A stretch of 25,681 bases of DNA from Promethearchaeota archaeon (GCA_011364975.1 RDOE01000050.1:1-25681); one strand, 5' to 3'; shown: positions 1 to 25,681, numbered from the stretch's first letter. The notes: generated from the letters alone by a model not told the origin. Made by a program: numbers and translations.

Positions 1-1195
1 AGCAAATTCCAATCGCAAGAAGGCCAAATTTAGGGATAAAGAAAAATGATCCCACTATTGTTAAAGTAGTTACATTTATATTTATGATCAGAATGGGTTT
101 CAACTGATGCTTGAGTCTGAAATAAAAAATGAAAAATGTATTAATTGAGGCTGGGATCGCAGCTATAGCCAAAATTAATAATAGCTCAAAACCAAATATA
201 GCATAATTTCCTCCAAATAGCTGTAATAAGAATTTTCCAAAAAAGAAAATACCTAAAACAGCAGGGATTATTAAAATTGTCATTAAAACGATAGCTTGTT
301 TTTGATTTGCATGTTTTTTTCCTGTAGCGCTTGCTTCTTCAATCATGAAGGAAGCACCAATTCCCTCGGGCATAGCTAAAATCATATTTCCAATCATCCA
401 AGAGACATAGAAATATGCACTGTACTCTGGTGAAAGCAATTCTAATACAAGTATGGGAAGAAAAGATCTTGGAAAAATTGATAGTAAATTAGCAATGTAA
501 TTTCCTAAAGCAAAAATACTCATTTCAGAAATTTTTGATAAGTCTATATGAAATTTAGGATTAAAATCTTTAATTGCTATTGGAAGACCGAACTTCCAAA
601 GGCATAAAGTTACAATCCAAATTGCTAGGCTAGTACCTAATATCAATCCGATAGCACCGAGATTGACTAGGAATATGCAAATAGGTATCTTGACTAAAAT
701 TACAATTATAGTTCTCACAAATACTAAAAAAGAGACTCTTAGTCCAGCAAAGGTTGCGCCTAAAATTGAAGACAGATCATTAGCTATCACTAGTGTAAGA
801 AGTATTACCATAAATAAGATTTGATTATTCAAATTAGAATACTCGGAACTTATTAAAAAAAGGATAGAAAAACCGATAATGCTTATGATGACTGATGAAA
901 TCAGAATTATCAGAGTCGATGAGATGATTAAATCAGTTTTAGATTTATTGTAATCTGGTAAATAACGTCGAAGTCCTTCTTCAAGTCCAAAACGGGAGAA
1001 TAGGGCCAACCAAACGCTCATGGTTATCAAAGAGGTTGCAATACCAATTTCAGCCTCATTATAAACATTAGTCATTATGGTCCAAAAAAGAAAATTTATA
1101 GGGGCGCTTCCTATTGATGCGGTCATTAGGAAAAACGCATTTAAAACGAGGGGGTTTAAAAATCTAGCAAATAACTTCTGTTTTACTATAGCCAT
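1..1195 (-). CDS. Oligosaccharide flippase (MOP/Wzx, archaeal-type polysaccharide biosynthesis protein), 3'-truncated by window edge
   Basis: Not in ORF track (no stop in window). ATG at 1195 with GGGTG upstream; manual translation MAIVKQKLFARFLNPLVLNAFFLMTASIGSAPINFLFWTIMTNVYNEAEIGIATSLITMSVWLALFSRFGLEEGLRRYLP... and IPKFGLLAIGIC at the edge; typical multi-TM flippase pattern. Confidence 0.85.
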   Translation of the reverse strand, partial: MAIVKQKLFARFLNPLVLNAFFLMTASIGSAPINFLFWTIMTNVYNEAEIGIATSLITMSVWLALFSRFGLEEGLRRYLPDYNKSKTDLIISSTLIILISSVIISIIGFSILFLISSEYSNLNNQILFMVILLTLVIANDLSSILGATFAGLRVSFLVFVRTIIVILVKIPICIFLVNLGAIGLILGTSLAIWIVTLCLWKFGLPIAIKDFNPKFHIDLSKISEMSIFALGNYIANLLSIFPRSFLPILVLELLSPEYSAYFYVSWMIGNMILAMPEGIGASFMIEEASATGKKHANQKQAIVLMTILIIPAVLGIFFFGKFLLQLFGGNYAIFGFELLLILAIAAIPASINTFFIFYFRLKHQLKPILIININVTTLTIVGSFFFIPKFGLLAIGIC

Positions 1196-1257
1196 TGGTA
1201 CACCCGTTTTAAATAGATGCCTCTTCAATTATCAAGAAAGATATTTCATTTATTAGT

Positions 1258-1992
1258 TCAATTAAATCCTTTGGTTAACCAGCGAAATCCGAAGATGATA
1301 GAAGCAATATAAATGGAAGATAATCCTAATGCATATAAAATTACAAAAAATTCCGTTAAAGATAAAATAAACGCAATATAGTATAGAAAGTAACAATAGG
1401 GAGCTATAAAAATATTTGAATATAAAATTAATAGATAGTACGTTAAATTTCGGTTACTTCTCTTAATAGTCTTACTAATTTTCAAGTTTGGGTCATTGCT
1501 GGAATTTCTTAATGCTCTATTCACAGATATCATATTTCTCTCAAACATTGATTTAGTTAAGCCAGAAATAAAACCCAGAATTAAAAATACAATTTCACCT
1601 GTCGTTTGATAAACAATCCAACCTATTAAGGGAAAAAAGACAGAAAATTGTATTTCATGACTTATCAGCTCTACTTGAAGACCAATCGGTGAAGCTGTTT
1701 TTCTAAATCTAGCAATTTCTCCATCAGAGTTATCTAATATGGTTCCAACTACAACAAAGAAAATAGAGATGATTATACCTATGATATTGTTTAATAGTAG
1801 GCAGAGAAATCCTATTATGACAATTACGGTCCCTAGGACTGAAACTTGATTTGCAGAAAAACCTAATCTAAGTAATACCTTCGTAAAGTAAATAGATGGA
1901 TATCGCCATATCACAGTCTTGACTTCTGAATTCTCTCCATTATTTCCTTGGCAGATTTCCCTCAGTTCTTTTATAGATATAGTCACAAGCAA
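1258..1992 (-). CDS. CDP-alcohol phosphatidyltransferase/phosphotransferase family protein (variant motif)
   Basis: SANQVS helix and DNSDGEIAR-x8-G-x3-E-x3-H motif (canonical DxxDGxxAR-x8-GxxxDxxxD); several TM helices; TTG start preceded by AAGGAG. Confidence 0.85.
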   Translation of the reverse strand: MLVTISIKELREICQGNNGENSEVKTVIWRYPSIYFTKVLLRLGFSANQVSVLGTVIVIIGFLCLLLNNIIGIIISIFFVVVGTILDNSDGEIARFRKTASPIGLQVELISHEIQFSVFFPLIGWIVYQTTGEIVFLILGFISGLTKSMFERNMISVNRALRNSSNDPNLKISKTIKRSNRNLTYYLLILYSNIFIAPYCYFLYYIAFILSLTEFFVILYALGLSSIYIASIIFGFRWLTKGFN

Positions 1993-2072
1993 TTCTCTCC
2001 TTTTATATTATAATGTTCTCGGTGCATTAATTGATAGATCTTCGGTATTTTTGAGAAGTTAATAAGTCTCAC

Positions 2073-2090
2073 TATAAATATATTTTTTCC
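2073..2090 (-). promoter_or_regulatory. Putative archaeal BRE/TATA promoter for the CDP-alcohol transferase gene
   Basis: Minus strand reads GGAAAAAATATATTTATA, a purine-rich BRE followed by a TATA box, about 80 nt upstream of the start. Confidence 0.35.
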
Positions 2091-2242: not shown

Positions 2243-3964
2243 TCATTTTGACTTATAAATCTTGATATAATCCCATATAATGGTTGATCCAGCTTTCCCT
2301 CCGATGAAAAAGGAAATTCGTCTTACAAGAAACGCCTGCTTAATTTTGATGGTATATAGCTCAAAATCAGATGTAGTATTGCAATAATTTATTTCATATT
2401 TCTTCTCTCCAATCCAAGGAGCTAGAGTTGGATGGATTTCATACAAACTGAAACCCCAATACGCGCTATTAGGGGAAGTCAACCGTGCTTGAACAATAAT
2501 ATATTCTGAGGCATTTATCCATACAGAAAAATCAAAATGAGATTTAATATGAGCCATTTCATTATTCTCAAGTGCTGCTGGGGTTACTATTGTTTGAAAA
2601 AAAGATCTATTTACGATATTAATTTCAATAAAAGTAGGGGAATAATTTTCTATAGAAATGAGATCATTAAAATCATTTTGATAATAATCTTGATATAAAA
2701 GCGGTCCTGTTCCAATCGAAACATTTCTATTGATGTAGAGTTCTATAGAGGCCCACGACAAAGGAAATATGCACAAAAATAGAATACAAACAAGTTTTAA
2801 TGTTTTTAAATTAATTTTTGAGTTGATAGTCTTTGACGCATAAACAAGAGGAATCCAAGATATTGGCAGCCAATAACGAAGACCCGAGGCCGAAGTAGCA
2901 TAAGAATAGTATAATGTATATGCCAAGAAGAAAATAAAACCCCAAACAACAATGATGTTGAAATCTTCGTATTTAAGCCCATTTGGAGGTTTAACAAACC
3001 TTCTAAAACTTTTGAAAGCTAAACTCCCTAATGATAACATAAATATTGATGTTGCAGGAAGAATACCTGTTTTTATAAGACCTTTAAAGAAGTTTTGAAT
3101 AAATCTTGGATTTAACCATTTTTGTTGTAATAATAGTAGAATTTTAATGAATTCTCTATTCATAAACTCCTCTCTATAAGCTGTAGAAACGAGTTGAGCA
3201 AGAACAGGAAAAATTAAGGGATCAATATATAAGAGTAGGTATAAAAAAAATACAAAAATAAAAAAAATACTAATTCTCAATTTTCTTGGTCTTATTAATA
3301 CAAAAAATAGGATAAACGCAAGAATGTAAACTTCTCTTGTTAAGAACGCAAGGATAAATGAAATAAGACTTAGAACCAAGAATAAATATTTTGTTTTTTG
3401 CCTATTTTTTTGAAAAATTTCCAGAAATACTATCATTAATAGAAAAAAGAATAAACCAGCCATATCCGTGATAATATTAAACCAATAGTTAAGAAAATTA
3501 TAACTAAAGACTGTAAACAATATAAAGAAGTTAATCCCTTCTTTAGGAAAATTATATATCTCTAATAATTTTTTCATTAAAACTAGATTTGCTAAAGCAA
3601 ATAATAAATTAATAGAACATGCCAACAATCCTATGTTTATAGGAAAGATAATATGAACTATAGCAATGATGCTAGGATAAATAATTCGGTTTTTTTGATA
3701 ATAATTAGTAATTAATTCATCACGAACTCCGGTACGAATCAGTTTTTCGATTGATAATGCAAAAATTTGATAAGAATCAACATTATAACCAGTAAAAAAG
3801 ATTGTTTTAATCAAACCAAAAGAAATTGAAAACATAAAACTAATAAAAAGTAAGTACTTGAACTTCTTCTGAATGAAATCTAAAACTATAGCACTAGTCT
3901 GTTCCACTTTATGTGCAAAATTATCCAAGTAATCTCCTAGGTTATTTCGATTTATTTCGATCAT
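2243..3964 (-). CDS. Polytopic membrane protein, GT-C fold (PMT/ArnT-like) glycosyltransferase candidate with C-terminal soluble beta-rich domain
   Basis: Many TM segments, acidic first loop (NVDSY), ITD and LTRE motifs, LRYWLP (RYxxP) motif typical of GT-C; hydrophilic C-terminal ~160 aa ending IWDYIKI. Confidence 0.6.
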   Translation of the reverse strand: MIEINRNNLGDYLDNFAHKVEQTSAIVLDFIQKKFKYLLFISFMFSISFGLIKTIFFTGYNVDSYQIFALSIEKLIRTGVRDELITNYYQKNRIIYPSIIAIVHIIFPINIGLLACSINLLFALANLVLMKKLLEIYNFPKEGINFFILFTVFSYNFLNYWFNIITDMAGLFFFLLMIVFLEIFQKNRQKTKYLFLVLSLISFILAFLTREVYILAFILFFVLIRPRKLRISIFFIFVFFLYLLLYIDPLIFPVLAQLVSTAYREEFMNREFIKILLLLQQKWLNPRFIQNFFKGLIKTGILPATSIFMLSLGSLAFKSFRRFVKPPNGLKYEDFNIIVVWGFIFFLAYTLYYSYATSASGLRYWLPISWIPLVYASKTINSKINLKTLKLVCILFLCIFPLSWASIELYINRNVSIGTGPLLYQDYYQNDFNDLISIENYSPTFIEINIVNRSFFQTIVTPAALENNEMAHIKSHFDFSVWINASEYIIVQARLTSPNSAYWGFSLYEIHPTLAPWIGEKKYEINYCNTTSDFELYTIKIKQAFLVRRISFFIGGKAGSTIIWDYIKIYKSK

Positions 3965-4200: not shown

Positions 4201-5397
4201 TTAAATGTTTGGTCGATTTGTATCCGCTAATAAGCCAAAGTACATAAATTGAATTCCGACTAAAAGAAGAATAGTGGAAAAAATAGTGAGATCAAATGGG
4301 ACAGGGAACACAACTGAGGAAACTGAAGTGATAGAAAAGAAAAATAATCCAAGGAGGAAGGCAAGAATCCCAAATCCGCCAAAAAACCAAATTGGTTGAA
4401 AATCCCTCAAAGTTCTGATAATAGTTAGCCAAGATCTCCATGCATAATCTACAGGGGTTCGAATTAACCGTGATTCACCTATTTTACGTTTATCAAAAAA
4501 GATAGGAATTTCTAATATCCTACTATTCATAAATCGAGCCTGGATTATTGTTTCCTGAGTATATGTATATTCTCCTCGTAATTTATAGGAACGTACAAGA
4601 TGAGTGGAAATACCACGAAAACCAGTTTGTCCATCTGTGATTCGAATTCCAAGCATTAAGGATAGGGCAAAACTCATCATTTTATTACCTAACCTTTTAC
4701 TAAAGGACATTCGTTCAATTTGTCCTGCAAATCTCGACCCAAGAACTAAATCTGCTTCTCTAGTAAGAATGAAATGGGATATCTTTGGAATCTCTTCTGT
4801 ACGATATTGACCGTCAGCATCGAAAGTTACTATTGCATCTATATCTAATTTCGCTGCATATTCCAAACCCTTTTTCATTGCTGCTCCTAAACCCTGATTT
4901 ATTTCATTTCGAAGAACATGAATCTCTGGAAATTGAGTCAATAAATCACTCGTATTATCAGTGGAACCATCATCAATGACAACAATGTTCTTAGAATAGT
5001 TCTTGCAATCCCTAATAATATCCCCAAGGGTTTCAGCTTCATTATATGTTGGTATAACTATTCCTAACCTCTCTGGATCTTTCTTTAATACTTCAGGTAA
5101 TTCAGATAATAGATTACTTCTTAAGAAAATATTAGAAAAAATTTTTGCGATGAGAGAGAGAGTTACTAACGTTAATCCAACAAAGAAAAACCCCCAAACG
5201 AAAATCAGTAATATCTGGGAATAATTCCCTGATTGTAACATAGTTTGTAAGAAAATAATAGTTTCTCTTAGATCAAATGCCAAAACTAGCTCTAGGATAA
5301 ATTCAAATATTTCAATAGATAAAATAAGGAAAATCATAACACATGAAAGACCCATTGATAGGATACCATATTCAAATATTCTTCTTTTTATTTGCAA
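4201..5397 (-). CDS. GT2 glycosyltransferase, polyprenol/dolichol-phosphate sugar synthase-like, with N- and C-terminal TM helices
   Basis: IVIPTYNE, VIDDGSTD, NQGLGAA, FDADGQY (DxD), GSRF and ITDGQTGFR motifs; TTG start with GAGG upstream. Confidence 0.9.
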   Translation of the reverse strand: MQIKRRIFEYGILSMGLSCVMIFLILSIEIFEFILELVLAFDLRETIIFLQTMLQSGNYSQILLIFVWGFFFVGLTLVTLSLIAKIFSNIFLRSNLLSELPEVLKKDPERLGIVIPTYNEAETLGDIIRDCKNYSKNIVVIDDGSTDNTSDLLTQFPEIHVLRNEINQGLGAAMKKGLEYAAKLDIDAIVTFDADGQYRTEEIPKISHFILTREADLVLGSRFAGQIERMSFSKRLGNKMMSFALSLMLGIRITDGQTGFRGISTHLVRSYKLRGEYTYTQETIIQARFMNSRILEIPIFFDKRKIGESRLIRTPVDYAWRSWLTIIRTLRDFQPIWFFGGFGILAFLLGLFFFSITSVSSVVFPVPFDLTIFSTILLLVGIQFMYFGLLADTNRPNI

Positions 5398-5704
5398 CTA
5401 CAATCCTCTTTTATCTATAAATTTAATTTAGTTTATAGTATTTCCTTCCTGTTTCTAGATATAAAATCTAGCATATAGTTATATTTTCCTATATAGCTTA
5501 AACTAATATGTATACCTTCAGTGATCTGAGTAGGAAAAATATCAATTCTTGAAAATATTCTTTTCTTTAGTTCGACGTTCAAAATAACTTCTTTCTTAAT
5601 CATTTTTTTAATATCGCAGTAAAATTTTTACATTACATCATTTAGCTGTTGTTAATTAATATTTTACAGTTCAATCAGTAATGACTTTGAATTCAGGGAT
5701 CTAC

Positions 5705-6664
5705 ATGAAAAATATTCTGATTTCGGGTGTTGCAGGATTTATTGGTTCTCACACTGCTGAAAAATTGCTTCAAATGGGGTACAGAATTATAGGCATTGAT
5801 AATCTAAATGATTATTATGATGTTAAATTAAAAAAATCTAATCTGGATAATTTAAGAGAAAATAACCAGTTTAAATTTATTAAAATAGACATCACGGACT
5901 TTAAATCTTTAAATATATTGTTAAATGAAACTTCATTTGACTATATAATACACCTTGCGGCCCAAGCTGGAGTAAGGTATAGTAACGCCAAACCATTGTT
6001 ATATCAACGAGTGAATATTGAAGGAACGCTAAATCTGTTAGAAATTGCCCGACTATCAAGTTGTAAAACGTTTATTTTTGGGTCTTCCTCTTCCGTGTAT
6101 GGCAATCAAGAAATATTTCCGATTCTAGAGACAGCTAATACAACAAAGCCCATTTCTGTTTATGCAGCAACGAAACAAGCAGGGGAATCGCTTTGCCATA
6201 GCTACTCTCACTTATATGGAATTGATATTAATACATTACGCTTTTTTACTGTTTATGGGCCTCGTGGCCGTCCAGATATGTCTCCGTATATCTTTACTAA
6301 AAGTATAATTGATAAAAAACCAATAAAAATATTTGAATCAATTTCTGGAACTATAAAAAGGGACTTCACTTATATTTCCGATGCTGTAGCAGGAATTATA
6401 AGTGCTTTGCACTTTAACCATGGATTTAACGCTTTTAATATAAGTAGTGGGATTCAAATTAGTTTAATGGATTTCATTTCGCAATTAGAGGTTGAATTGG
6501 GAGAAAAAGCGAATATAGAGCGTCATTCCGAAGTCCCTGGGGATGTGAGAATTACTTACGCAGATATTTCCAAAGCAAGATCAAAATTGGGTTTTAATCC
6601 GCGTATGGATTTAAATCAAGGAATTAAAGGATACATTGATTGGTATAAATCGTATTATTTATAA
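5705..6664 (+). CDS. NAD-dependent epimerase (extended SDR), UDP-glucuronate 4-epimerase-like
   Basis: GVAGFIGS, DNLNDYYD, HLAAQAGVRYS, SSSSVYG, YAATK and LRFFTVYGPRGRPDM; ATG 5705 fits the family N-terminus (ORF opens at 5681). Confidence 0.9.
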   Translation: MKNILISGVAGFIGSHTAEKLLQMGYRIIGIDNLNDYYDVKLKKSNLDNLRENNQFKFIKIDITDFKSLNILLNETSFDYIIHLAAQAGVRYSNAKPLLYQRVNIEGTLNLLEIARLSSCKTFIFGSSSSVYGNQEIFPILETANTTKPISVYAATKQAGESLCHSYSHLYGIDINTLRFFTVYGPRGRPDMSPYIFTKSIIDKKPIKIFESISGTIKRDFTYISDAVAGIISALHFNHGFNAFNISSGIQISLMDFISQLEVELGEKANIERHSEVPGDVRITYADISKARSKLGFNPRMDLNQGIKGYIDWYKSYYL

Positions 6665-6829: not shown

Positions 6830-8170
6830 TTGAGTGAGACTAAAATTGCAATTCATGGTACAGGCTTTATTGGACTTGTGAGCGGATGTTGTTTTGCCAT
6901 TAAAGGATTTAAAACAATAAATTCTACATATGATCAAATAAAATGTGATCAAATTAATAAAGGGGAAACTCCTTTTTATGAAAATGGCTTAGAAGAGCTT
7001 TTAAGAGAAGCTTTGGCAACTAAAAATTTTAAATGTGTCGTTGGAAGGAAATATGCCGTCTTAAATTCAGATGTTAGTATGATTGCTGTTGGAACTCCAA
7101 TGGGAAAGGATTATAGTATAAATTTAACATTCATTGAAAAAATAGCAGAGGAAATTGGTCAAATCCTTCAGAATCATAATCAATATCACTTAATCGTTGT
7201 CCGTTCTACAGTTGTTCCTGGTACAACAAGAAATCTGGTAGGTAAGAGAATTGAGAAACTTTCAGGTAAAAAAATGGGAGAAGATTTTGGCTTATGCATG
7301 CAACCTGAATTCCTTGCAGAGGGAAGGTCAATCTTAGATACACTTGAACCAGACAGAATCATTATTGGAGAATTAGACAAAAAATCAGGAGATATTTTAC
7401 AGAAAATTTATGGAGTATTCTATGAAGATCATTTGAATAATTGCCCAATTTTAAGAATGAACCTAGAAAGTGCAGAGCTCGTGAAATATGGAAACAATTG
7501 TTTACTAGCAACAAAAATTTCTTATGCTAATGAGATGTCACGAATTGCGGAACTTGTACCTGGAGTTGACATCGTTCAAGTTATGAGGGGAGTAGGACTT
7601 GATTATCGTATTAATGAAAAGTTTTTAAGAGCAGGAGTAGGTTTTGGCGGATCGTGTTTTCCGAAAGATGTTAACGCAATCATCTCATTCGCTAGAGCGC
7701 ATGGATATGACGCTAGATTATTACGCGCAATTATGGAAATTAATGAAGATCAAGCAAAACATACAGTTGACTTACTCGAAAATGAACTAAAGGAAGTAAA
7801 AAATAAAAAAATTGCTCTCTTGGGATTAGCCTTTAAACCTGGAACCAATGATATGCGTTTTGCACCCTCCATCAGAATTATAGATTATTTACTAGAAAAA
7901 GGAGCCCAAATTATAGGTTGGGATCCAGTGGCAGAAGAGGAAGCCTTTAAAATAATGAAAAATTCAATACTGTATGCTGATAAAATCGAAGAGGCTCTTT
8001 TGGATGCCGATGGGGCTATAATTGTCACAGAATGGGATGAAATTTCTCAGTTACAACCGAATGACTTTAAAAAGTCAATGAAAACTCCAATTGTAGTAGA
8101 TGGAAGACGAATATTAGATCCGACAAAATTTCAAGATGAAATTACACTTCTCTCTATAGGAAAACGCTAA
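6830..8170 (+). CDS. ugd: UDP-glucose/GDP-mannose 6-dehydrogenase family (Ugd/AglM-like), paralog 1
   Basis: GTGFIG Rossmann loop, IAVGTP, RSTVVPGTT, PEFLAEG, catalytic GFGGSCFPKD, GLAFKPGTND, DGRR; TTG start. Confidence 0.9.
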   Translation: MSETKIAIHGTGFIGLVSGCCFAIKGFKTINSTYDQIKCDQINKGETPFYENGLEELLREALATKNFKCVVGRKYAVLNSDVSMIAVGTPMGKDYSINLTFIEKIAEEIGQILQNHNQYHLIVVRSTVVPGTTRNLVGKRIEKLSGKKMGEDFGLCMQPEFLAEGRSILDTLEPDRIIIGELDKKSGDILQKIYGVFYEDHLNNCPILRMNLESAELVKYGNNCLLATKISYANEMSRIAELVPGVDIVQVMRGVGLDYRINEKFLRAGVGFGGSCFPKDVNAIISFARAHGYDARLLRAIMEINEDQAKHTVDLLENELKEVKNKKIALLGLAFKPGTNDMRFAPSIRIIDYLLEKGAQIIGWDPVAEEEAFKIMKNSILYADKIEEALLDADGAIIVTEWDEISQLQPNDFKKSMKTPIVVDGRRILDPTKFQDEITLLSIGKR

Positions 8171-8202
8171 ATTCTGTTGTAAATTAAATCGAGACGGACT
8201 AT

Positions 8203-10382: not shown

Positions 10383-10497
10383 TATTTAGCCTTCTTTTAA
10401 GATATCTACTCAATTATTCAGGATAATGATTTTTATTATTTAATTTCTAGATTAACCAAAATAATCTTTTTAATGGCATATTTCAATTAATTGAACC

Positions 10498-10514
10498 CGG
10501 GAAACTTTATTAAT
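10498..10514 (+). promoter_or_regulatory. Putative archaeal BRE/TATA element facing away from pepM
   Basis: CGGGAAACTTTATTAAT resembles the archaeal BRE + TTTAWA consensus; no annotated + strand gene follows. Confidence 0.3.
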
Positions 10515-10955
10515 GTAACTTTTATAGTGTTTAAAGGGATCTACATATTATTTAAAAAATAATTAACCGAGAATTATATGATTATCACGAGTCTTTAAAA
10601 TAATTTAAAAATCACTGGGGGAGATGGTGATGCTACTGCTAATCGATTGAACCCTCTTCAAAGAATGTTGAAAATTCTTGATAGCATAAAAAATCAATAT
10701 ACGGTTATATTATTCCTATTTGATAAATAGAGGTTAAAAATTACTCCCAAAAGGAGTGTATAAAGCGGGTAATTTATAACAAAAGGTTTTTTATTAAATA
10801 CAGATCCTTTGAGCTAATAATATAAATCTATTTAAATTAATTGACTGAAAAACCCTTTTCCTTTGGATCTTCTTTTCTCTCATTAGCATTTTAAATTGGT
10901 TTATTGTAATCAATTATGGATTTTGGCATATAAATGATTATTTCGTGTATATATG

Positions 10956-17281: not shown

Positions 17282-17493
17282 TTTCCCACGTTTAAGACAT
17301 GGAAGAAAGATTCTTAAAAGATATTCGACAAAAACTATCTGAGTTTGATATATCATATCTAATTTCAAAAACAAATAAACTACAAATCGTAATCTTTGAA
17401 ATATAAGGTGAAAGATGTTGATAGTTCGAATTCAGAGAAATTTCGTGAGATTCAATAAAATTTATCCAATTAAATGACTATGGAGGAAGTTTA

Positions 17494-18927
17494 ACGTCCA
17501 ACAACCAGTATTGGAGGAAAGTCATAAAAGCTTCAAAATGGTCTGTTCTATTTGAATTATTCTCCAAATTGGCTTATTTTCTTATCTTATTGATCACTGT
17601 TTGGATATTATCACCAGAGGAATTTGGAATCGCCTCAGTAGCTGTCTTAGTATTTAATTTTTCTTTAATTTTTAGGGATCTAGGTTTAAGCAAAGCTCTA
17701 ATACAAATAGATACGAATATTGAGGAAGCTACAAACGTAGTATTTTATATAAACCTCATGCTAGGTATAGTCATCTATATTTTTTGGTTTATATTTGCTG
17801 ATTATCTAAATATAGTTTTTAGAGATGTCAGAATTGGGAACGCAGTTCGTATTCAAGTAATTCAAATACTAATCGGGACGATAGGATATGTATATATTGC
17901 GCTTTATCAAAGAGACTTAGATTTCAGGTCGCTATTTTGGAGTAATATGATTCTAAGTATTATACCTGGATTTATATCCATTCCATTAGCATTGCTAGGA
18001 TTAAGCTATTGGTCTATAATTCTGGGAAATTTAATTGGTTCTTTTATTCAGGTAGTATTTTTAGTTAAAACAAATTCATGGAGACCAAAACTATCCATAA
18101 ATCGAAAAATAGCATCTATAATCCTAACTCAGGGAATGCTTATGACAGGGGAAAGTCTGTTTACTTGGTTAATCAATTATTTTGATAATCTTCTTGTGGG
18201 AATATTCTTTGGTTCTGCTTCAATAGGAATATATAATTTAGGAAAATCCCTTTCTGCAACAATTTTTAGCGTTTTGAATAGTCCTCTCCTTCCAATCATA
18301 TATAGTTCATTATCACGGTTACAAAAAGATATTAAACAGTTTATAGATTCATATTTGAAATTCTTAAGCATAATCTGCTCATTAACACTACCTGCAGGAG
18401 TCGGGTTATTTTTAGTAGGAGATCTTATTGCAATTTCCTTCTTTAGTACAAATTGGATCAGTATAGGAGTAGTGTTGAGTCTTTATGGAATGAAAAGTGG
18501 ATTACAGAGCATTTTCAACACGAATGCCTCGACTATGCGATCAATTGGACGAGTTAAATTAAATCTGAAAATTAATTTTATATCATTACTTTATACCATT
18601 CCCTTCCTAATTCTTGGCGCAATGGAAGGTATGGAAGTGTTTCTTTTGATAAATTTACTAATTTCTACCTTAAATTTAATATTAAGTTTTACTTGTGTGA
18701 TGAAAATTCTAGAATTACAAATTTTTAAAATAATGAGGAAAATGAAGAACCAATTTATTACAATTGCAGTTATGAGTATAATAATTCGATTTTTGCGGGA
18801 AATTATTACTGCAGTTCCCATTATAGAGTTGTTCTTAGTTGTTTCTGCTGGAACCCTAATTGTATTATTCTCATTAATCCCTAATAGAACAAAAGTCTTC
18901 AATTTAATAAATGAATTCATATATTGA
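17494..18927 (+). CDS. wzx: Wzx/PST-family polysaccharide flippase (lipopolysaccharide biosynthesis protein)
   Basis: LSPEEFG, DLGLSKALIQ, YWSII.G, DNLLVG...IGIY motifs; frame is open upstream of TTG 17569 and encodes the family N-terminus KVIKASKWSVL; best SD-linked start is ACG at 17494. Confidence 0.85.
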   Translation, partial: TSNNQYWRKVIKASKWSVLFELFSKLAYFLILLITVWILSPEEFGIASVAVLVFNFSLIFRDLGLSKALIQIDTNIEEATNVVFYINLMLGIVIYIFWFIFADYLNIVFRDVRIGNAVRIQVIQILIGTIGYVYIALYQRDLDFRSLFWSNMILSIIPGFISIPLALLGLSYWSIILGNLIGSFIQVVFLVKTNSWRPKLSINRKIASIILTQGMLMTGESLFTWLINYFDNLLVGIFFGSASIGIYNLGKSLSATIFSVLNSPLLPIIYSSLSRLQKDIKQFIDSYLKFLSIICSLTLPAGVGLFLVGDLIAISFFSTNWISIGVVLSLYGMKSGLQSIFNTNASTMRSIGRVKLNLKINFISLLYTIPFLILGAMEGMEVFLLINLLISTLNLILSFTCVMKILELQIFKIMRKMKNQFITIAVMSIIIRFLREIITAVPIIELFLVVSAGTLIVLFSLIPNRTKVFNLINEFIY

Positions 18928-18943: not shown

Positions 18944-20083
18944 ATGCATGTTACACACCTTACTTCAAGTTTTCCTCGGTATTTGGGAGACTTTCATGGT
19001 TCATTTCTAAAATCGCAACTTGAGGAAATATGTAAATATAACATCAGGATAAGTGTGGTATTCCCCAGAGGATATCAATATATCTACGAGCCAAATTTAA
19101 TCCTGAATTTATATCCCTTTCGCTATTTTCCTCAGAAATTGGAAACCTTACCCAATGAGCCATTGTATACAATATCTAGATCAAAAGTGATCCAACTACC
19201 CTTTTATCTTGGAGGAGGTTTCTTTAAAACTATTAAAATACACGCAGATGTAGTGCATGCACAATGGGCTATTCCTATGGGTTACATAGCCTCAATCTCT
19301 AAAAATATTAATAAAATCCCCATTGTATTAACTCTTCATGGTTATGAAGTTGACTTTGCAAAGAGATTTCCTCCAATTTTGTATGCCTTAAAAAAGGCAT
19401 GCAATTCCGCTCAAAGAATAATATGTGTAGCAAATCATATGAAAAAAGATTTAGTGCCTCTTGGTATCGATGAGAAAAAAATGGAGGTTATCCCGCTTGG
19501 AATTAATACTAAATTGTATAATAGATACAGGGATTCCAAATATCACATAAAAGCTGATAATAGTAAATTAAGAATTGGTACTTTGAGCTCTCTTGTTGCG
19601 TTAAAACGCATACAAGATGTTATAAACTCAATAAAAATCCTTAAGAATTACGATTATGAATTGTTAATAGGTGGAGATGGTCCTATGCGATCATCGTTAG
19701 AGAAACAAGTACGTGCTTACAATTTAAAGAATGTAGAGTTTTTAGGTCAAATTCCTACAAACCAAGTCCCATCCTTTTTATCTTCACTAGACATTTTTGT
19801 GTTATCTTCATATAAGGAAGGGCTTTCTATTTCTTTACAAGAAGCTATGAGCTGTGGTTGCGTTCCAATAGTTTCTGATTCCTTATTAGCACACGAACTT
19901 ATTATTGAAGGTAAAACAGGATATTTTTATAAATACTCAAATGTACATGATTTGGCTCAGAAGATAGGCATTGCTTCGAAGAATTTAGGGATTGGAACCC
20001 AAGCTCGTAAACATATTGAAAAGAATTTTGAGATAACTAAAAATACTCGAAAAGTTGTGGAAACATATATATCTGTTCTTTGA
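18944..20083 (+). CDS. GT4 glycosyltransferase (GT-B fold)
   Basis: TSSFPR, VHAQWAIPMG, TLHGYE, GDGP and EGLSISLQEAMSCG (ExxxxxxxE). Confidence 0.9.
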   Translation: MHVTHLTSSFPRYLGDFHGSFLKSQLEEICKYNIRISVVFPRGYQYIYEPNLILNLYPFRYFPQKLETLPNEPLYTISRSKVIQLPFYLGGGFFKTIKIHADVVHAQWAIPMGYIASISKNINKIPIVLTLHGYEVDFAKRFPPILYALKKACNSAQRIICVANHMKKDLVPLGIDEKKMEVIPLGINTKLYNRYRDSKYHIKADNSKLRIGTLSSLVALKRIQDVINSIKILKNYDYELLIGGDGPMRSSLEKQVRAYNLKNVEFLGQIPTNQVPSFLSSLDIFVLSSYKEGLSISLQEAMSCGCVPIVSDSLLAHELIIEGKTGYFYKYSNVHDLAQKIGIASKNLGIGTQARKHIEKNFEITKNTRKVVETYISVL

Positions 20084-20105
20084 AAATAAAAATGCTGGAA
20101 AAGGG

Positions 20106-21245
20106 TTAACTTTCCAAAATATATTGGATTACTTTTTTCTTCCAGTTAAAAATGAATTTAGATTTTCTTTTCTTGCAGAATTCACTAATTTTTTGATAAT
20201 ATTGTTTATCTTCAATAATCCTTGTTAATTTGCTAGAAAGCGCTTTCACATCATTTGGAGGAAAGAGAAGTTCATCAAAAAACAAAATCTCTTTATTTCC
20301 TCCGATATTTGTTGCAATACAAGGTTTTCCAATGCCCAAACCTTTCAATAAGACATTGGAACAACCTTCATAAACAGAGGGAACTACAATAAGATCAAAG
20401 TCCCTCATTAGATCTAATGGTTCGATAACCCAATCAATTATCTTAATTCTATTAGAAAAACTCCTTATTTCTTCCATAAGTGAACCATTCCCTACTAAGA
20501 CTAATTCAGCATTCTTTGTATTTAGGTTCAAAAACGCCTTTACTAGTGTTATTATGCCTTTAATTGGCTCAAATAATCCAATAAATCCAATCCTCATTGG
20601 TTTAGTTACTATCGAAAAATCTAAAGATTGTTGATTAAATGAAAGAGCAGCAGGAGGAATATCATTATTTAAAATCCGATGATCACATATTCTTAACTTC
20701 CTGTGTCTTTTACATACCCTAGTTACGAGATCATTTGACACAAATATCAATTTATTAGAAGCAAAGATACCAATTGTTTCAAGAAGATCTCGAATGACAA
20801 TTTGGATTCCACTTTTTTTATTCAAAACATCCTCCAATCTTCTATCTCCTCGTACGAAGGTTATGACTTTAGTTGATTTACTAAATTTCTCAAAAATAAA
20901 AACACATGAGAGATCTAAACCAAAAGATATTAGATATTTGGCTTTTGTCTTTTTAGTGATAATTGGTACCAATAATGTTGAAATCAATATGAACAATACA
21001 TAATTAAAGGGATTTAGCGTTTTCCCTAAAGGGATCTGTTTAAATTGCAAACCCATTAAATTCGGATATTTTCCTATTAATCCACCTGAATCAGAGCAGA
21101 TCAGAGTTATTTTAAAATTGTATTCAAGTAAACCTTCAATGAGAGTTTGAAGTCTTTGATATGACCCTCCTTTATTTATATTAAATGTTACTATGATAGC
21201 TGTTTTATCAGGACTTACATAATTTGCTATTGTTTTATTCTTCAT
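20106..21245 (-). CDS. GT4 glycosyltransferase (GT-B fold)
   Basis: KGG N-terminal loop, GFIGLFEPIKG, VGNG, VPSVYEGCSNVLLKGLGIGKPCIATNIGGNKE (second Glu of the ExxxxxxxE motif is Lys). Confidence 0.85.
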   Translation of the reverse strand: MKNKTIANYVSPDKTAIIVTFNINKGGSYQRLQTLIEGLLEYNFKITLICSDSGGLIGKYPNLMGLQFKQIPLGKTLNPFNYVLFILISTLLVPIITKKTKAKYLISFGLDLSCVFIFEKFSKSTKVITFVRGDRRLEDVLNKKSGIQIVIRDLLETIGIFASNKLIFVSNDLVTRVCKRHRKLRICDHRILNNDIPPAALSFNQQSLDFSIVTKPMRIGFIGLFEPIKGIITLVKAFLNLNTKNAELVLVGNGSLMEEIRSFSNRIKIIDWVIEPLDLMRDFDLIVVPSVYEGCSNVLLKGLGIGKPCIATNIGGNKEILFFDELLFPPNDVKALSSKLTRIIEDKQYYQKISEFCKKRKSKFIFNWKKKVIQYILES

Positions 21246-21477: not shown

Positions 21478-21492
21478 GAATAGAATAAGATC

Positions 21493-22704
21493 ATGAATTT
21501 AGGAATAAAACCAAAGATTTTGATCATTATCCCTAATCTCGATTTATCTGGTGGGGCAGAGAAATCAGCTTCAATTTTAAGCAATCTTCTAGCTGATGAT
21601 GGATATGAAATTTATGTGTTAACGTTTTATTATTGTTCGCAGATGCATAAAACTAAAGGAAAATTTTATTGTCTTTATGAAAAAGGAAATGGAGAAAAAA
21701 AATTTGTATTAAAGGCTCTATTTCATGTAAAAAAGCTTTTTCTTCGTACAATAGTAATCAATGGGATTTGTAAAGAAAACGCAGTAAACACTATTTTTGC
21801 TTTTATGGAAGATGCAAGTTTCACATCTCTCCTTACTAAGATATTGTTTAGATTGAAGCAAAAAGTAGTAATTTCAATCCGAACAAATCCAGAAGCATAT
21901 GGAAAAACAAATAGAATGATGATGAAGCTTTATCCAAGAGCAAACAAAATCGTATCAGTATCAAATGGAGTTAAAGAAAGTTTAGTTCAAAAAGGGATCT
22001 CTAGGAGTAAAATTATAACAATTTATAATCCTATTGAAATTTCTAAAAATAAATTGATGTCTAATACACGAATAAAGAATTTCCCTGAAGATATATTTCT
22101 AAATTCCTTTGTTTTTTTAAATATTGGAAGACTAGATAGACCTAAGGGGCAATGGTATCTTATTAGAAGCTTTAAAAAAGTTGTAGAAAATTACTCGAAT
22201 GCAAAACTCATCATTATTGGGATAGGCCCTCTAATGAAAGACCTAACCAACCTTATTAGAGAATCAGGGCTGGAAAATTCAGTATATATACTTGGTTCGA
22301 TTCCTAATGTATTTCCTTATCTAAAAAATGCTGATTGCTTTGTCTTCACCTCTCTCTGGGAAGGATTTCCCAATGTTTTATTAGAGGCCTTATCGATGGG
22401 ATTACCGATTATATCTAGTGATTGCCATTTTGGGCCAAGAGAAATTCTTGCTCCAGAATTAAATCTGTTTGATAGAGTTGAGTACCCATATTATACAACT
22501 TATGGGGTATTAATCCGCAGATTCCAAATGGATTTTAAAATAGGTACATTAAATGTCAAATCTTTATGTGAAGAGGAGGAGATGTTGATTAAAGTCCTAT
22601 GTAAATTTCTGGAAAATCCAATTAAGAATCGGGAAAAAAATGAAAAAAGGGCATTAAACTTTAATTTAACCTCTTTTTTTGATGCTTGGAAACGTCTTAT
22701 CTGA
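21493..22704 (+). CDS. GT4 glycosyltransferase (WabH/PglJ-like)
   Basis: GGAEK, IYNP, IGRLDRPKGQ and SLWEGFPNVLLEALSMGLPIISSDCHFGPREIL. Confidence 0.9.
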   Translation: MNLGIKPKILIIIPNLDLSGGAEKSASILSNLLADDGYEIYVLTFYYCSQMHKTKGKFYCLYEKGNGEKKFVLKALFHVKKLFLRTIVINGICKENAVNTIFAFMEDASFTSLLTKILFRLKQKVVISIRTNPEAYGKTNRMMMKLYPRANKIVSVSNGVKESLVQKGISRSKIITIYNPIEISKNKLMSNTRIKNFPEDIFLNSFVFLNIGRLDRPKGQWYLIRSFKKVVENYSNAKLIIIGIGPLMKDLTNLIRESGLENSVYILGSIPNVFPYLKNADCFVFTSLWEGFPNVLLEALSMGLPIISSDCHFGPREILAPELNLFDRVEYPYYTTYGVLIRRFQMDFKIGTLNVKSLCEEEEMLIKVLCKFLENPIKNREKNEKRALNFNLTSFFDAWKRLI

Positions 22705-22834
22705 AATAAACTAAAAATAAGACATTAAAACATCAGAATTATCCTATGTTCATAAATAAATTGTACTACGCAATGTATATTTCAAAAAAGGATCGTTTAC
22801 AGCCTTTTACATAGAATTTACAGTGGTATGTAAT

Positions 22835-23788
22835 ATGAAAAGTCTAGTTACTGGTGGAGCAGGTTTTATAGGCTCACATCTTGTGAAAAAATTAGTAGAA
22901 AATAAACAGGAAGTTATTGTTCTTGATAATTTCTCTTCAGGCAGATATAATTATAAATTTCTTGAAACAATGCCAAAAGTAGATATTATTGAGGGTTCTA
23001 TTATTAATAGGGATGTTGTTCACGATGCTATATCACAATGTGATAATATATATCACCTTGCTGCCTTTAATCGTGTTCCGCGCTCAATTGAAGATCCGAT
23101 ACTATCAAATGAGATTAATATTACTGGAACTCTTAATATACTCGAAGCAGCAAGAAAATTTGATATTGAAAGCATTGTTTATAGTTCAAGTTCTTCAGTC
23201 TATGGGATGTCAAAGGAATTCCCTAGAGTAGAGAACTGCAATCCAATGCCAAAAAGCCCCTATGCTGTAGGTAAATTAGCATCAGAATACTATTGCCAAG
23301 TATATGAAGATTTATATAATATAAAAGTAAAAATCTTAAGATATTTTGCAGTTTACGGACCAAAGCAATCACCAATCATTAAATATGCAGCTGTAATTCC
23401 GTATTTTATACTGAATGCATTAAATGGTAGAAAATTACCCGTCTATGGAGATGGAAATCAGCGAAGAAATTTCACTTTTGTCGAAGATACGGTAAATGCT
23501 ACGATTTTGGCAATGAAATCAGATAGAGCTTCAGGAGAAATAATCAATATTGCAAATGAATCTGAAATTTCATTAAATGAAATTATTGATCTTCTAAAAG
23601 AGGAATTAAATAAAGATATATTGGTGGAGTATTATCCATGGAGGAAAGGAGATGTGAAACACGCTTACCCTGATTTATCAAAAATGAAAAAAATTCTTGG
23701 ATATAGATCAATTTATTCAATAGAAAAAGGCATAAAAACGACTCTTGATTGGTATAAAAGCAATCCTTCTTATTTTGAAGATTCCTAA
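22835..23788 (+). CDS. NAD-dependent epimerase (extended SDR), WbpP/UDP-GlcNAc 4-epimerase-like
   Basis: TGGAGFIGSH, HLAA..VPRSIEDP, SSSSVYG, PKSPYAVGK (YxxxK), YAAVIP and GDGNQRRNFT; ATG 22835 (GTG 22823 is an alternative). Confidence 0.9.
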   Translation: MKSLVTGGAGFIGSHLVKKLVENKQEVIVLDNFSSGRYNYKFLETMPKVDIIEGSIINRDVVHDAISQCDNIYHLAAFNRVPRSIEDPILSNEINITGTLNILEAARKFDIESIVYSSSSSVYGMSKEFPRVENCNPMPKSPYAVGKLASEYYCQVYEDLYNIKVKILRYFAVYGPKQSPIIKYAAVIPYFILNALNGRKLPVYGDGNQRRNFTFVEDTVNATILAMKSDRASGEIINIANESEISLNEIIDLLKEELNKDILVEYYPWRKGDVKHAYPDLSKMKKILGYRSIYSIEKGIKTTLDWYKSNPSYFEDS

Positions 23789-23804
23789 TAGGACAGAAAT
23801 ACTC

Positions 23805-24908
23805 ATGGTTGAAATTACATATTTTATTAGTGATTATGGTTTTGGACATGCTGCTAGGAGTATTGCAATTATTAGAGCTTTTCTTGCTTGTGATTTAGAT
23901 ATAAATATAGAAATTCATACGTTTTTTCCTTTAGAATTAATAAAACGCTCTTTATCCAAAAAAAGTGAAATAAAAAGAATAAAATTTCACAAAATGAGAA
24001 ATGATGTTGGTTTTATCTGGAATGCTAAACAAGAGAAAATTGATAATGAGAAAACAACAATTAATGTTCATCAATGGGTAAAAAACTGGCCATCAACCTA
24101 TCTCTTTGAGAAATATATTTTTTTGAAAAACAAAGAAATCTCGCTCATAGTCTCTGATATTGCTCCCCAACCTTTTTTATTAGCTAAGAAATTAGATTTA
24201 CCGAGTATTGCTATAAGTAATTTTACCTGGTTTGATATTTATCAAGATTTCTGTAAAACTGAGGATTTGCAAGAGATTTGGAGAGCATATAGGGAAGCTT
24301 CCTTAGGACTCATGCTTCCCTTTAATCTTGAAAACAAAGTTTTCCCAACAATCCTCGAAACATCTCTGGTTAGCAGAGATCCAACCCGATCGCGCAAGAA
24401 AATTTGTTCCAATTTAAAAATTAACCCCTCCACTCCTATAATATATGCAGGAACAGGAAAGTCCTTAATAAATCCGTTTATAGAAGAATGGAAAATTCAT
24501 CCAGAATATGATTTCATTCTAGGCAGTAGCTCAACCATTTCTGCCCCAAATATCCATAGCATTCCCTATAATGATCCCGAAGGCCAAGATTACATCGCAG
24601 CTAGTGATCTAGCCGTCTTAAAGATTGGTTATAGCTCAATTTCGGAAGCAATTAGAGCGAAAATCCCATTTATCGCTATAGATTTTGTTCAGAGTGCAGA
24701 AACTAAGTTTATGAGAAAAAAAATTCAAGAGTTGAATATTGGGGAATGTATCACTCCTCAGGAGTTTTTTTCTGGTAAATGGATAGATGAAATTCCAAAA
24801 ATCATGGAATTGAAGGAAAATTATTCCTCATTACCCGAACGATTTTTGAAAAAAGGAGAATATCAATGCGCAAATATTATTCTTGACCTATTACAGGAAA
24901 TAATTTAA
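23805..24908 (+). CDS. GT-B fold glycosyltransferase-like protein (GT28-related; like the N-terminal domain of L-arabinokinase)
   Basis: YFISDYGFGHAARS, LIVSDIAP, SNFTWFDIY and DLAVLKIGYSSISEA; ATG 23805 avoids overlap with the upstream gene. Confidence 0.75.
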   Translation: MVEITYFISDYGFGHAARSIAIIRAFLACDLDINIEIHTFFPLELIKRSLSKKSEIKRIKFHKMRNDVGFIWNAKQEKIDNEKTTINVHQWVKNWPSTYLFEKYIFLKNKEISLIVSDIAPQPFLLAKKLDLPSIAISNFTWFDIYQDFCKTEDLQEIWRAYREASLGLMLPFNLENKVFPTILETSLVSRDPTRSRKKICSNLKINPSTPIIYAGTGKSLINPFIEEWKIHPEYDFILGSSSTISAPNIHSIPYNDPEGQDYIAASDLAVLKIGYSSISEAIRAKIPFIAIDFVQSAETKFMRKKIQELNIGECITPQEFFSGKWIDEIPKIMELKENYSSLPERFLKKGEYQCANIILDLLQEII

Positions 24909-25014
24909 CTTCTGTCTTTTAATTGAATGTCTCTAGGTATTTTTCATAAAAACCATTAGATCTAATATTGAAGAATTAAAACATCATGTTTTATTTGCAA
25001 TTAATTGATTTAAA

Positions 25015-25681
25015 ATGGTTACCAAAATTGCTGTTATCGGTATGGGTTACGTGGGAATTCCTATTGCCGCATTATTAGCAGATATCGATGAATTTCAAGT
25101 GACAGGTATCCAACGACGTTCTAAACGGTCGGGATGGAAAATTGAGTATATTAACCAAGGTAAATGTCCGATTAAAAATGAACCTGTTCTTCCTGAACTA
25201 CTTCAACGTGTTGTTAAGGAAAAAAAGCAATTAGTCGTAACTGATGATATTTCTATGATTTCTGAGATGGACTATGTTCTAATTGATGTCCAGACTCCAA
25301 CAGATGAGAATAATGTACCGCAATACGTATCGCTTCGAGGAGTAAGTAAAGAGGTCGGAACCCATCTTAAACAGGGTACGACAGTCATCATTGAATCTAC
25401 CTGTGCTCCTGGCACAACTGATTATATTGTAAAACCTATCCTTGAACAGGAATCAGGTTTAACGGCTGAAAAAGATTTTTATTTGGCTTTTGCATATGAA
25501 CGTGTTATGGTTGGCCGTTTAATCTATAATATTCTGCATTATCCGCGTATAGTGGGAGGAATTGATGTAAAAAGTGCAGAGAAGGCTGCTTGGTTGTATA
25601 AACAAGTTCTCAAAAGCAAGATTATTGAAACAACAGCTTTAACTGCAGAGCTTGCAAAAGTAGTGGAGAATACATACCGTG
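25015..25681 (+). CDS. Nucleotide-sugar dehydrogenase (UDP-N-acetyl-hexosamine 6-dehydrogenase, WecC/WbpA-like), 3'-truncated by window edge
   Basis: Not in ORF track. Manual translation MVTKIAVIGMGYVGIPIAA...QRRSKRSGWKI...IDVQTP...ESTCAPGTT...AYERVMVGR...AELAKVVENTYR. Confidence 0.9.
   Translation, partial: MVTKIAVIGMGYVGIPIAALLADIDEFQVTGIQRRSKRSGWKIEYINQGKCPIKNEPVLPELLQRVVKEKKQLVVTDDISMISEMDYVLIDVQTPTDENNVPQYVSLRGVSKEVGTHLKQGTTVIIESTCAPGTTDYIVKPILEQESGLTAEKDFYLAFAYERVMVGRLIYNILHYPRIVGGIDVKSAEKAAWLYKQVLKSKIIETTALTAELAKVVENTYR

Follow-up and report, generated by a model that had tools for sequence, protein, structure and literature searches.

Fom1 of the fosfomycin pathway of Streptomyces wedmorensis consists of a cytidylyltransferase (CyTase) domain (PF01467) followed by a phosphoenolpyruvate mutase (PepM, or Ppm); its partners in an antibiotic cluster are a phosphonopyruvate decarboxylase (Ppd) and a reductase. 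According to Rice et al. (PMC6697681), the CyTase domain cytidylylates hydroxyethylphosphonate (HEP). Here, we describe a gene with the same domain order (9060–10382, minus strand) in the window, by which we mean the entire 25,681 bp contig C151 (RDOE01000050.1) of the Promethearchaeota archaeon genome G000 (GCA_011364975.1), a metagenome-assembled genome (MAG) of 3.74 Mb in 200 contigs with a completeness of 99.25% and a contamination of 6.09%. Unlike the Fom1 gene, the fusion is set in a glycan island, and neither Ppd nor the reductase was found with it. Family assignments from Pfam and NCBIfam profile searches of the window proteins indicate a strain-variable, acidic surface-glycan island with uronic-acid chemistry, in which the beginning and the end of a plausible phosphonate module are present and its middle is missing, most likely from the organism as well.

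The AepX protein of Bacteroides fragilis sits in a capsule locus. Phosphonate-decorated surfaces are known in bacteria and have been proposed for Nitrosopumilus. The bacterial Pnt clusters (Treponema denticola, Atopobium rimae and Olsenella uli PntC) resemble the window in that their glycan loci combine pepM with genes for a cytidylyltransferase and a phosphotransferase, and that activation with cytidine monophosphate (CMP) is expected (PMC6697681). Unlike the window, these clusters encode Ppd and a 2-aminoethylphosphonate transaminase (AEPT); activation is usually left to an enzyme of the LicC/PF12804 type, and a LicD-like protein serves as the transferase. The ‘Burkholderiales_CDP-OH’ neighbourhoods, as described in PMC8942020, share with the window a Ppm–cytidylyltransferase fusion accompanied by phospholipid genes of the CDP-alcohol type; they differ in being bacterial and in encoding Ppd, AEPT and an oxygenase, and lipids were proposed as their product. 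In Nitrosopumilus maritimus, an archaeon of a different phylum, pepM lies among glycosyltransferase and nucleotidyltransferase genes and a phosphonate-decorated exopolysaccharide has been proposed (PMC9381506); its methylphosphonate pathway comprises ppd, phpC and mpnS.

Complete cassettes were found in Asgard genomes of the same phylum. In G038, G035, G193 and G124, genes for CyTase–PepM, Ppd, an iron-containing alcohol dehydrogenase (Fe-ADH) and a nucleotidyltransferase of 240 residues stand together in varying order, and the window PepM is 61–67% identical to the corresponding proteins (64% for G038 and 67% for G124). In G257 and others, a PepM–nucleotidyltransferase (PepM–NTase) fusion is found with Fe-ADH, a nucleotidyltransferase, Ppd and TarF-like and CDP-alcohol-phosphotransferase-like (CDP-OH-like) genes. 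Ppd (416–490 bits) and Fe-ADH lie beside PepM in these cassettes, whereas the window has neither.

The CyTase–PepM fusion and a candidate transferase

The fusion protein (440 residues) matches PF01467 with 53.6 bits and PF13714 with 176 bits. It scores 382.3 bits against the PepM equivalog TIGR02320 (cut-off 319.55), and 383.8 bits in a profile scan of the genome, in which it is the only PepM of G000. The N-terminal domain contains the HxGH motif of PF01467 cytidylyltransferases as HPGH and matches PDB entry 5x3d (molecule name ‘phosphoenolpyruvate phosphomutase’) with 188.6 bits over 134 residues; we take this entry to be the CyTase domain of Fom1. The PepM part matches the solved PepM structures 1m1b and 5unc with 137–140 bits. 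It contains, as [10 protein letters not shown], the motif EDKxxxxxNS, which is Ppm-specific according to Rice et al. (PMC6697681), where the PF01467 fusion is reported for 23.6% of Ppm proteins. An alignment with 95 homologues contains 76 columns with a conservation of at least 97%, and the window protein deviates at none of them; its two domains resemble their counterparts in the nearest relatives to the same degree, and the terminal branch of the PepM is 0.29, compared with a median of 0.23. More than 8000 database proteins match the fusion, the best at 67–77% identity, and the metagenome loci included no relative closer than 68%. These features agree with the first-pass annotation, which had called the fusion intact, and the protein is best described as an intact Fom1-type CyTase–PepM and a predicted mutase.

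The gene lies in the middle of the contig between intact neighbours, and its stop overlaps the end of a convergent nucleotidyltransferase gene by four bases. This junction is bridged, with zero differences each, in contigs of two studies unmarked as possible sources of the window (X4 record 14, 8862–11198; X6 record 21, 8862–9484). The possibility that the gene order is an assembly chimera was rejected on these grounds.

A CDP-alcohol phosphotransferase had also been predicted, and a gene of this kind is present at 1258–1992 (minus strand), ∼7 kb from the fused CyTase, so that an activating enzyme and a phosphotransferase are both encoded. The encoded membrane protein matches PF01066 marginally (24.5 bits, cut-off 22) and its best PDB match is AF2299 (4o6m; 25.5 bits), an archaeal CDP-alcohol phosphotransferase. 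The signature of CDP-alcohol phosphotransferases is D-x2-DG-x2-AR-x8-G-x3-D-x3-D; the window protein has DNSDGEIAR-x8-G-x3-E-x3-H, in which the first half is intact and the third and fourth Asp are replaced by Glu and His, respectively. In an alignment, the final His is common to all five pepM-linked members, namely the window protein and those of L065 (5119–6003), L158 (7627–8508), L180 (4810–5802) and L210 (4493–5311). The motif of the subfamily is D-x2-DG-x2-AR-x8-G-x3-D/E-x3-H, and its members occur near pepM in Asgard, Candidate Phyla Radiation and metagenome contigs. The CDP-OH-like gene is located ∼2 kb downstream of pepM in L065, L158 and L180, in L065 directly after pepM–ppd–adh, and the protein of the G257 cluster (L210) is 31.5% identical to that of the window with the same His-variant motif.

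Among the 134 genomes of the same family, relatives of this protein were found in 15, all in the sister genus g22. Within this genus (54 genomes, which are kin and do not represent an independent count), 15 have the CDP-OH-like homologue, 17 have PepM and ten have both; the two genes are 4.4–5.6 kb apart on one contig in six of these ten, and five genomes have the homologue without PepM. We regard the protein as a plausible candidate CMP-phosphonate transferase, and we flag the His-variant subfamily as a whole in this respect. The expectation of a module with activation at one end and transfer at the other is thus borne out as far as a Fom1-like activating domain and a plausible transferase are concerned, whereas the steps between them are not.

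The missing middle steps and their occurrence elsewhere

The equilibrium of the PepM reaction favours phosphoenolpyruvate (PEP). In PMC8942020, Ppd and, more rarely, a PalB-type aminotransferase, FrbC or VlpB are given as the enzymes that pull it. The canonical route from PepM to a CMP-phosphonate requires Ppd, followed by either the reductase PhpC or the aminotransferase AEPT. The first-pass annotation had proposed a working CMP-phosphonate pathway; this was not upheld, as neither Ppd or AEPT above cut-off nor a close PhpC-like alcohol dehydrogenase was found in the contig or the MAG. The best match to the Ppd profile TIGR03297 in the whole MAG has 46.9 bits (cut-off 312.5), and tblastn with two Asgard Ppd proteins gave no match in the MAG at E ≤ 1e-3. 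A search of the window for a ppd remnant, with tblastn at E up to 10, returned nothing below E = 1. The best AEPT match in the MAG has 179 bits (cut-off 360.8). The MAG has Fe-ADH matches, all outside the contig, with an identity of 26–33% to the enzymes of the cassettes, a comparison made without a PhpC profile. The PalB-type aminotransferase, FrbC and VlpB-type 2-hydroxyacid dehydrogenase are not among the Pfam and NCBIfam assignments of the island, and no PhnD-type binding protein (PF12974) was found in the MAG, which for this one family is weak evidence against salvage of exogenous phosphonates. A weak thiamine pyrophosphate match on contig C184 was rejected as Ppd, since it belongs to a 2-oxoacid:ferredoxin oxidoreductase operon. 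On the same contig, locus L032 encodes a TIR-domain protein (8866–9597) beside the operon and a heterodisulfide-reductase-like FlpD fusion.

The frequency of pepM without ppd was assessed in two sets of loci with the same fusion. The genome set contains 80 named loci from bacteria, DPANN and Thermoplasmata, 54 of which extend 2.5 kb or more to either side; of the 80 loci in the metagenome set, 30 have such flanks (fetched flanks were 10 kb at most). A ppd gene is present in the flank in 48 of the 54 genome loci and in all 30 metagenome loci (78 of 84 together), with a median gap between ppd and pepM of ∼20 bp; in five metagenome loci ppd is shorter and matches in two pieces. These values can be set beside the ∼83% of ppm neighbourhoods (PMC8942020) and 86% of pepM genomes (PMC9381506) with ppd that are given in these papers. 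Ten other Asgard genomes with PepM were tested and Ppd scored above the cut-off in eight: it lies on the same contig within 3 kb of PepM in seven (G035, G038, G193, G124, G197, G220 and G257) and on another short contig in G001. The two without Ppd (G005 and G009) have their pepM on contigs of 3–4 kb. The neighbours of the other ppd-less loci include genes for LicD, TauD-like, HAD-nucleotidyltransferase, glycerophosphotransferase and capsule proteins; an alternative partner common to the window and these loci was sought and none was found beyond generic sugar genes.

PepM is patchily distributed in the phylum, with matches in 43 of 400 genomes including G000. In the window's own family it occurs in 30 of 134 genomes, in all of them as a different fusion with a C-terminal nucleotidyltransferase (519–585 residues, 46–50% identical; three of three tested were above the PepM cut-off), of which G000 has none. 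In a quick IQ-TREE phylogeny of 96 rows, the window PepM groups with P0002, P0003, P0004 and P0008 (support 98), one of which is named a Hodarchaeales PEP mutase by NCBI; the next clade is DPANN-rich, and the PepM proteins of G038 and G035, from the same order as the window, are placed elsewhere with those of Gammaproteobacteria (support 99). Where the context of the family-type gene was fetched, complete HEP-type clusters with PepM, Ppd, Fe-ADH, nucleotidyltransferases, TarF-like and CDP-OH-like genes were seen. The G257 cluster (L210, G257:C18:181000–200999), which encodes, in this order, two GT4 glycosyltransferases, the CDP-OH-like protein, a nucleotidyltransferase, a 443-residue protein, PepM–NTase, Fe-ADH, a further nucleotidyltransferase, Ppd and an epimerase, looks like a complete HEP-type surface-tailoring cluster. 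A TarF-like gene precedes the PepM–NTase fusion in G001 and G009. Besides L210, loci L012, L013 and L014 bear on this cluster type. Three Asgard genomes carry an additional ppd-like copy that is broken, either by in-frame stops or into split pieces (G038:C1:3623743–3624749, G001:C183:13–745 and G257:C18:19586–20583), a sign that phosphonate modules decay and turn over in this lineage.

The archaeal novelty originally attached to the window is smaller than was assumed. The same CyTase–PepM fusion occurs in DPANN and Thermoplasmata genomes, a Hodarchaeales relative is already named in NCBI, and archaeal Ppm is in print (PMC8942020 and PMC9381506), with a reported frequency of 1.6% of archaeal RefSeq genomes in PMC8942020. 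Our literature search, which covered papers exclusive of their supplements, found nothing that links phosphonate genes or phosphonate surfaces to Asgard archaea and nothing on the PepM–NTase clusters of this Asgard family.

Host and interpretation of the module

The earlier view of the host as probably an archaeon is confirmed, and it can be made more precise: it is an archaeon of the Asgard type. Of small-subunit ribosomal RNA (SSU), G000 contains a fragment of archaeal type (602 bits) but none of bacterial type; McrA was not found in the genome. It has three actin-family genes (175–292 bits), and the organism-named matches of one actin-related protein are all from Asgard archaea (Promethearchaeota, Thor-, Hod-, Loki-, Hermod- and Odinarchaeota). 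The gene with the best actin-family match of the genome (G000:C142:30093–31175; 292 bits) has one in-frame TAG inside. Assignment of the contig to bacteria had been named as the result that would remove the archaeal interest. A bacterial origin is very unlikely because the SSU, the actins, the composition and the gene-by-gene relatives all point to Asgard, and contamination of the bin with a bacterial or DPANN contig, which would make the system a non-Asgard one, is similarly far-fetched. The bin contamination of 6.09%, the DPANN-rich clade next to the window PepM and the lack of conservation of the island DNA within the genus, where at the DNA level only the gene of the first UDP-glucose 6-dehydrogenase-like enzyme (UGDH1; 6830–8170) matches, would be in keeping with contamination, although such a lack is typical of variable glycan islands and does not help in placing the contig. 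The GC content of the contig (0.308) is that of the bin (0.306) and its tetranucleotide distance ranks 71 of 166, which is typical for the bin. UGDH1 is 68–70% identical to Asgard genes of the same phylum, the named relatives of the 573-residue protein at 2243–3964 are all Asgard, and both the CDP-OH-like relatives in the family and the grouping of PepM with a Hodarchaeales-named protein agree with this placement. Near-identical DNA to window positions 7500–12500 is present in runs of six studies (marine sediment, estuary, mangrove and soil metagenomes), and the strain is therefore widespread; no RNA runs are listed among the holders of this segment. Parts of the window are without cover in some of the runs compared.

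If the missing steps were supplied, the module would lead from PEP via phosphonopyruvate (PnPy), phosphonoacetaldehyde and HEP to CMP-HEP and an ester on a glycan or lipid hydroxyl. In this scheme CyTase–PepM would form the C–P bond and activate the phosphonate with CMP, and the CDP-OH-like enzyme would carry out the transfer; the absent middle consists of Ppd, which would pull the unfavourable mutase equilibrium, and the reductase or aminotransferase for HEP or 2-aminoethylphosphonate (AEP). We favour the explanation, with a probability of about 0.55, that the window is an acidic-glycan island with an incomplete mosaic phosphonate module that is probably inactive or recently truncated, because the strain as encoded cannot make canonical phosphonates. 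Several observations speak against it. The pepM gene is without sign of decay, and its intactness would fit continued use or the disappearance of its partners in the very recent past. Accessory genes can escape a MAG of 200 contigs, and among five genomes with a ppd-less locus, ppd was found elsewhere in three and not at all in two. Two Lachnospiraceae species carry sister CyTase–PepM genes without ppd in the 10 kb flanks (L092 and L100), with neighbours that include a glycerophosphotransferase-like protein, nucleotidyltransferases and a methyltransferase, and no Ppd was found anywhere in the one genome of this pair that was searched (G061, the holder of L092); ppd-less use of PepM may be stable in this pair, which hints that such genes can persist without Ppd. 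In addition, every step of the glycan pathway is deduced from family membership.

Two other explanations were considered. One is a working phosphono-glycan or phosphonolipid system in which ppd and phpC or AEPT reside on unassembled or unbinned DNA, HEP or AEP being CMP-activated by the CyTase and transferred by the CDP-OH-like enzyme. The intact and conserved PepM, a transferase of a pepM-linked subfamily in the same island, the unlinked ppd genes of three of the five genomes above, the 200 contigs and 6% contamination of the MAG and the complete HEP-type cassettes of related Asgard genomes would all accord with it. We nevertheless consider it unlikely: neither Ppd, by profile or tblastn, nor AEPT was detected in a MAG that is 99.25% complete, seven of the eight Ppd-bearing Asgard genomes have Ppd within 3 kb of PepM, and pepM lies mid-contig with intact neighbours in an order confirmed by other assemblies. 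The other explanation is a Ppd-independent route, in which PnPy is drawn off by a noncanonical enzyme, for example by reduction to phosphonolactate or by direct activation by an island dehydrogenase or nucleotidyltransferase, and the CDP-OH-like enzyme attaches a novel phosphonate to the glycan. Conservation of pepM without ppd in this strain and in the Lachnospiraceae pair and the several NAD-dependent dehydrogenases that flank pepM lend it some weight, as do the rare ‘pre-Ppd other’ neighbourhoods and the ∼13% left unclassified in PMC8942020. However, the dehydrogenases beside pepM score strongly with their families as ordinary NDP-sugar enzymes, the known PnPy-consuming families are not among the island assignments and the window shares no neighbour with other ppd-less loci beyond generic sugar genes, so that we regard such a route as unlikely too, if marginally less so. 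More doubtful still is one specific form of it, in which PnPy or a direct derivative such as phosphonolactate is activated with CMP and the His-variant CDP-OH-like enzyme then links it as an ester to an acidic surface glycan. If true, this form would amount to a hitherto unseen type of surface decoration with phosphonate, in the group of prokaryotes most closely related to eukaryotes.

Phosphonate may decorate the surface of this organism, but the window alone is no demonstration of it because the pathway is incomplete. For annotation, the case serves as a warning that a glycan island with an intact pepM is insufficient grounds to call a phosphonate producer. The complete HEP-type clusters of the Asgard family are more interesting than the window itself; PepM is present in 30 of the 134 genomes searched and complete clusters were seen where context was fetched, which makes phosphonate tailoring of the Asgard envelope testable in cultured or enriched relatives.

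Organization of the glycan island

The window contains 20 gene-sized frames, nearly back to back, and neither a tRNA nor an Rfam family was found in it. All of the genes listed in the first-pass annotation, namely CyTase–PepM, flippases, GT2 glycosyltransferases resembling Dol-P-sugar synthases, GT-C-like transferases, uronic-acid enzymes, a methyltransferase and a CDP-alcohol phosphotransferase, are present. Beyond these, the window encodes three GT4 enzymes and a GT1, one more GT2 and one more epimerase, and a protein that joins a ribbon-helix-helix (RHH) part to a sugar-1-phosphate nucleotidyltransferase. The tally of the island is two MOP flippases, three GT2, three GT4 and one GT1 glycosyltransferases, two extended short-chain dehydrogenase/reductase (SDR) epimerases and three NDP-sugar dehydrogenases; of the GT2 trio, two are AglJ/PpgS/Dol-P-hexose-transferase-like and one has membrane anchors. 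The dehydrogenases, epimerases, glycosyltransferases and flippases support the surface-glycan island with uronic-acid chemistry that was originally proposed, although most NCBIfam equivalog scores of the island proteins are below their cut-offs.

UDP-uronic acids would, judging by family assignments, come from the nucleotidyltransferase together with all three dehydrogenases and both epimerases. UGDH1 (plus strand) matches TIGR03026 with 406 bits (cut-off 189.8), and its nearest relatives in the phylum are from family f16 and G252, while the paralogue on C85 of its own genome is 58% identical. The second UDP-sugar dehydrogenase (UGDH2; 10956–12356, minus strand; TIGR03026 395 bits) is inverted with respect to UGDH1, and a third, UDP-ManNAc-dehydrogenase-like enzyme (25015–25680, plus strand) is cut by the contig end (PF03721 117.5 bits; TIGR03026 180.7 bits on the partial protein). 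The epimerases are a GalE-like NDP-sugar epimerase/dehydratase of the extended SDR type (5681–6664, plus strand; PF01370 188.6 bits; GalE 175.8 bits, below cut-off) and a TviC-like SDR resembling NDP-sugar (uronic acid) 4-epimerases (22823–23788, plus strand; PF01370 208.5 bits; TviC 205 bits, below cut-off). The nucleotidyltransferase (8203–9063, plus strand), convergent with pepM, combines a weak RHH_1 match (19 bits) with PF00483 (79 bits). Its best PDB matches are sugar-1-phosphate nucleotidyltransferases (43 bits), to which it is nearer than to the PntC–AEPT structure 6pd1 (27.9 bits). It was rejected as the PntC-like enzyme of the cassettes, as it matches their 240-residue nucleotidyltransferase with 34 bits and is not orthologous to it.

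The GT4, GT2 and GT1 enzymes may assemble a lipid-linked oligosaccharide on the cytoplasmic face of the membrane. The GT4 enzymes are encoded at 18944–20083 (plus strand; PF00534 106.6 bits), 20106–21245 (minus strand; PF13692 81.7 bits) and 21493–22704 (plus strand; PglJ-like; PF00534 104 bits; PglJ 139.6 bits, below cut-off), and the GT1-type, MJ1255-like enzyme at 23745–24908 (plus strand; PF13528 25.7 bits; TIGR00661 35 bits, below cut-off). The membrane-anchored GT2 (4201–5397, minus strand) has four predicted transmembrane or hydrophobic segments and resembles the polyprenyl-phosphate-sugar synthases AglJ, PpgS and ArnC (PF00535 98.7 bits; AglJ 119 and PpgS 95 bits, both below cut-off); a soluble AglJ-like GT2 is encoded at 12625–13359 (plus strand; PF00535 86.4 bits; AglJ 78.8 bits, below cut-off) and a PglI-like GT2 at 16328–17374 (minus strand; PF00535 91 bits; PglI 89.6 bits, below cut-off). 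The oligosaccharide would be exported by the two MOP flippases, one of which (2–1228, minus strand) is cut by the contig end (PF01943 30 bits, cut-off 28.2; eight hydrophobic segments), while the other, of the MOP/Wzx type (17569–18927, plus strand), has 11 hydrophobic segments (PF13440 211 bits). The AglJ-like GT2s would make polyprenyl-phosphate sugars that one or more GT-C-fold proteins could add outside the membrane, and a SAM-dependent methyltransferase (13472–14347, minus strand; PF13489 59.8 bits) could tailor the product. The logic of uronic acids and Dol-P-sugars is shared with the Agl system of Haloferax volcanii (AglJ, AglM and AglF), whose models give the best-scoring NCBIfam name to the membrane GT2 and, if only equivalogs are counted, to UGDH1, as well as a lower-ranked name to the nucleotidyltransferase, all with scores below the equivalog cut-offs. 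Unlike that system, the window has no identified AglB-type oligosaccharyltransferase.

UGDH1 and UGDH2 bracket the nucleotidyltransferase–pepM pair as inverted paralogues and share the inverted repeats I1 and I2 (7622–7672/11553–11603 and 7066–7100/12101–12135). It is a matter of speculation that recombination between them could invert this segment and may have helped rearrangement. The 573 bp spacer upstream of pepM (10383–10955) has no gene-sized frame, with open reading frames of 25–39 residues only, no Rfam family and no ppd remnant.

Of the GT-C-like transferases named in the first-pass annotation, one is now supported by a modelled fold and the other is GT-C-like by language-model features only. 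The protein encoded at 14534–16324 (596 residues, plus strand) has just 13 homologues, at 28–32% identity, among 1.8 billion representatives searched, and a relative in one of the 134 family genomes. Its AlphaFold2 (AF2) model (pLDDT 85.7, pTM 0.87) was compared with the PDB using Foldseek, and the top 24 matches are all GT-C enzymes, including STT3, AglB, PglB, ArnT, DPY19 and ALG9 (E from 1.6e-5), with TMq values of 0.44–0.53 against oligosaccharyltransferases and ArnT. WWDYG is the motif of AglB/STT3 oligosaccharyltransferases; it is absent from this protein, which matches neither STT3 nor another Pfam family at E ≤ 0.01. Because the model shows a GT-C fold without WWDYG, the protein is predicted to be a GT-C transferase but not an oligosaccharyltransferase.

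The second of these proteins (2243–3964, 573 residues, minus strand) is a polytopic membrane protein without a Pfam or NCBIfam family. It has only 17 relatives, at 35–53% identity, among 5.8 billion proteins searched, and the named ones are from Thorarchaeota and Helarchaeota only. In its AF2 model (pLDDT 84.6) a helical membrane bundle is followed by a β-sandwich, and only the C-terminal sandwich has matches in the PDB, to carbohydrate-binding modules of the CBM4 and CBM6 families. Its likeness to GT-C enzymes comes solely from the ESM Atlas, in which PMT_2 clusters are nearest (0.95); this is a lead only, and the protein is possibly a GT-C-type transferase. Residues Asp63, Arg93, Asp167, Arg210/Glu211 and Lys294 are invariant among the relatives, a pattern that suggests an enzyme.

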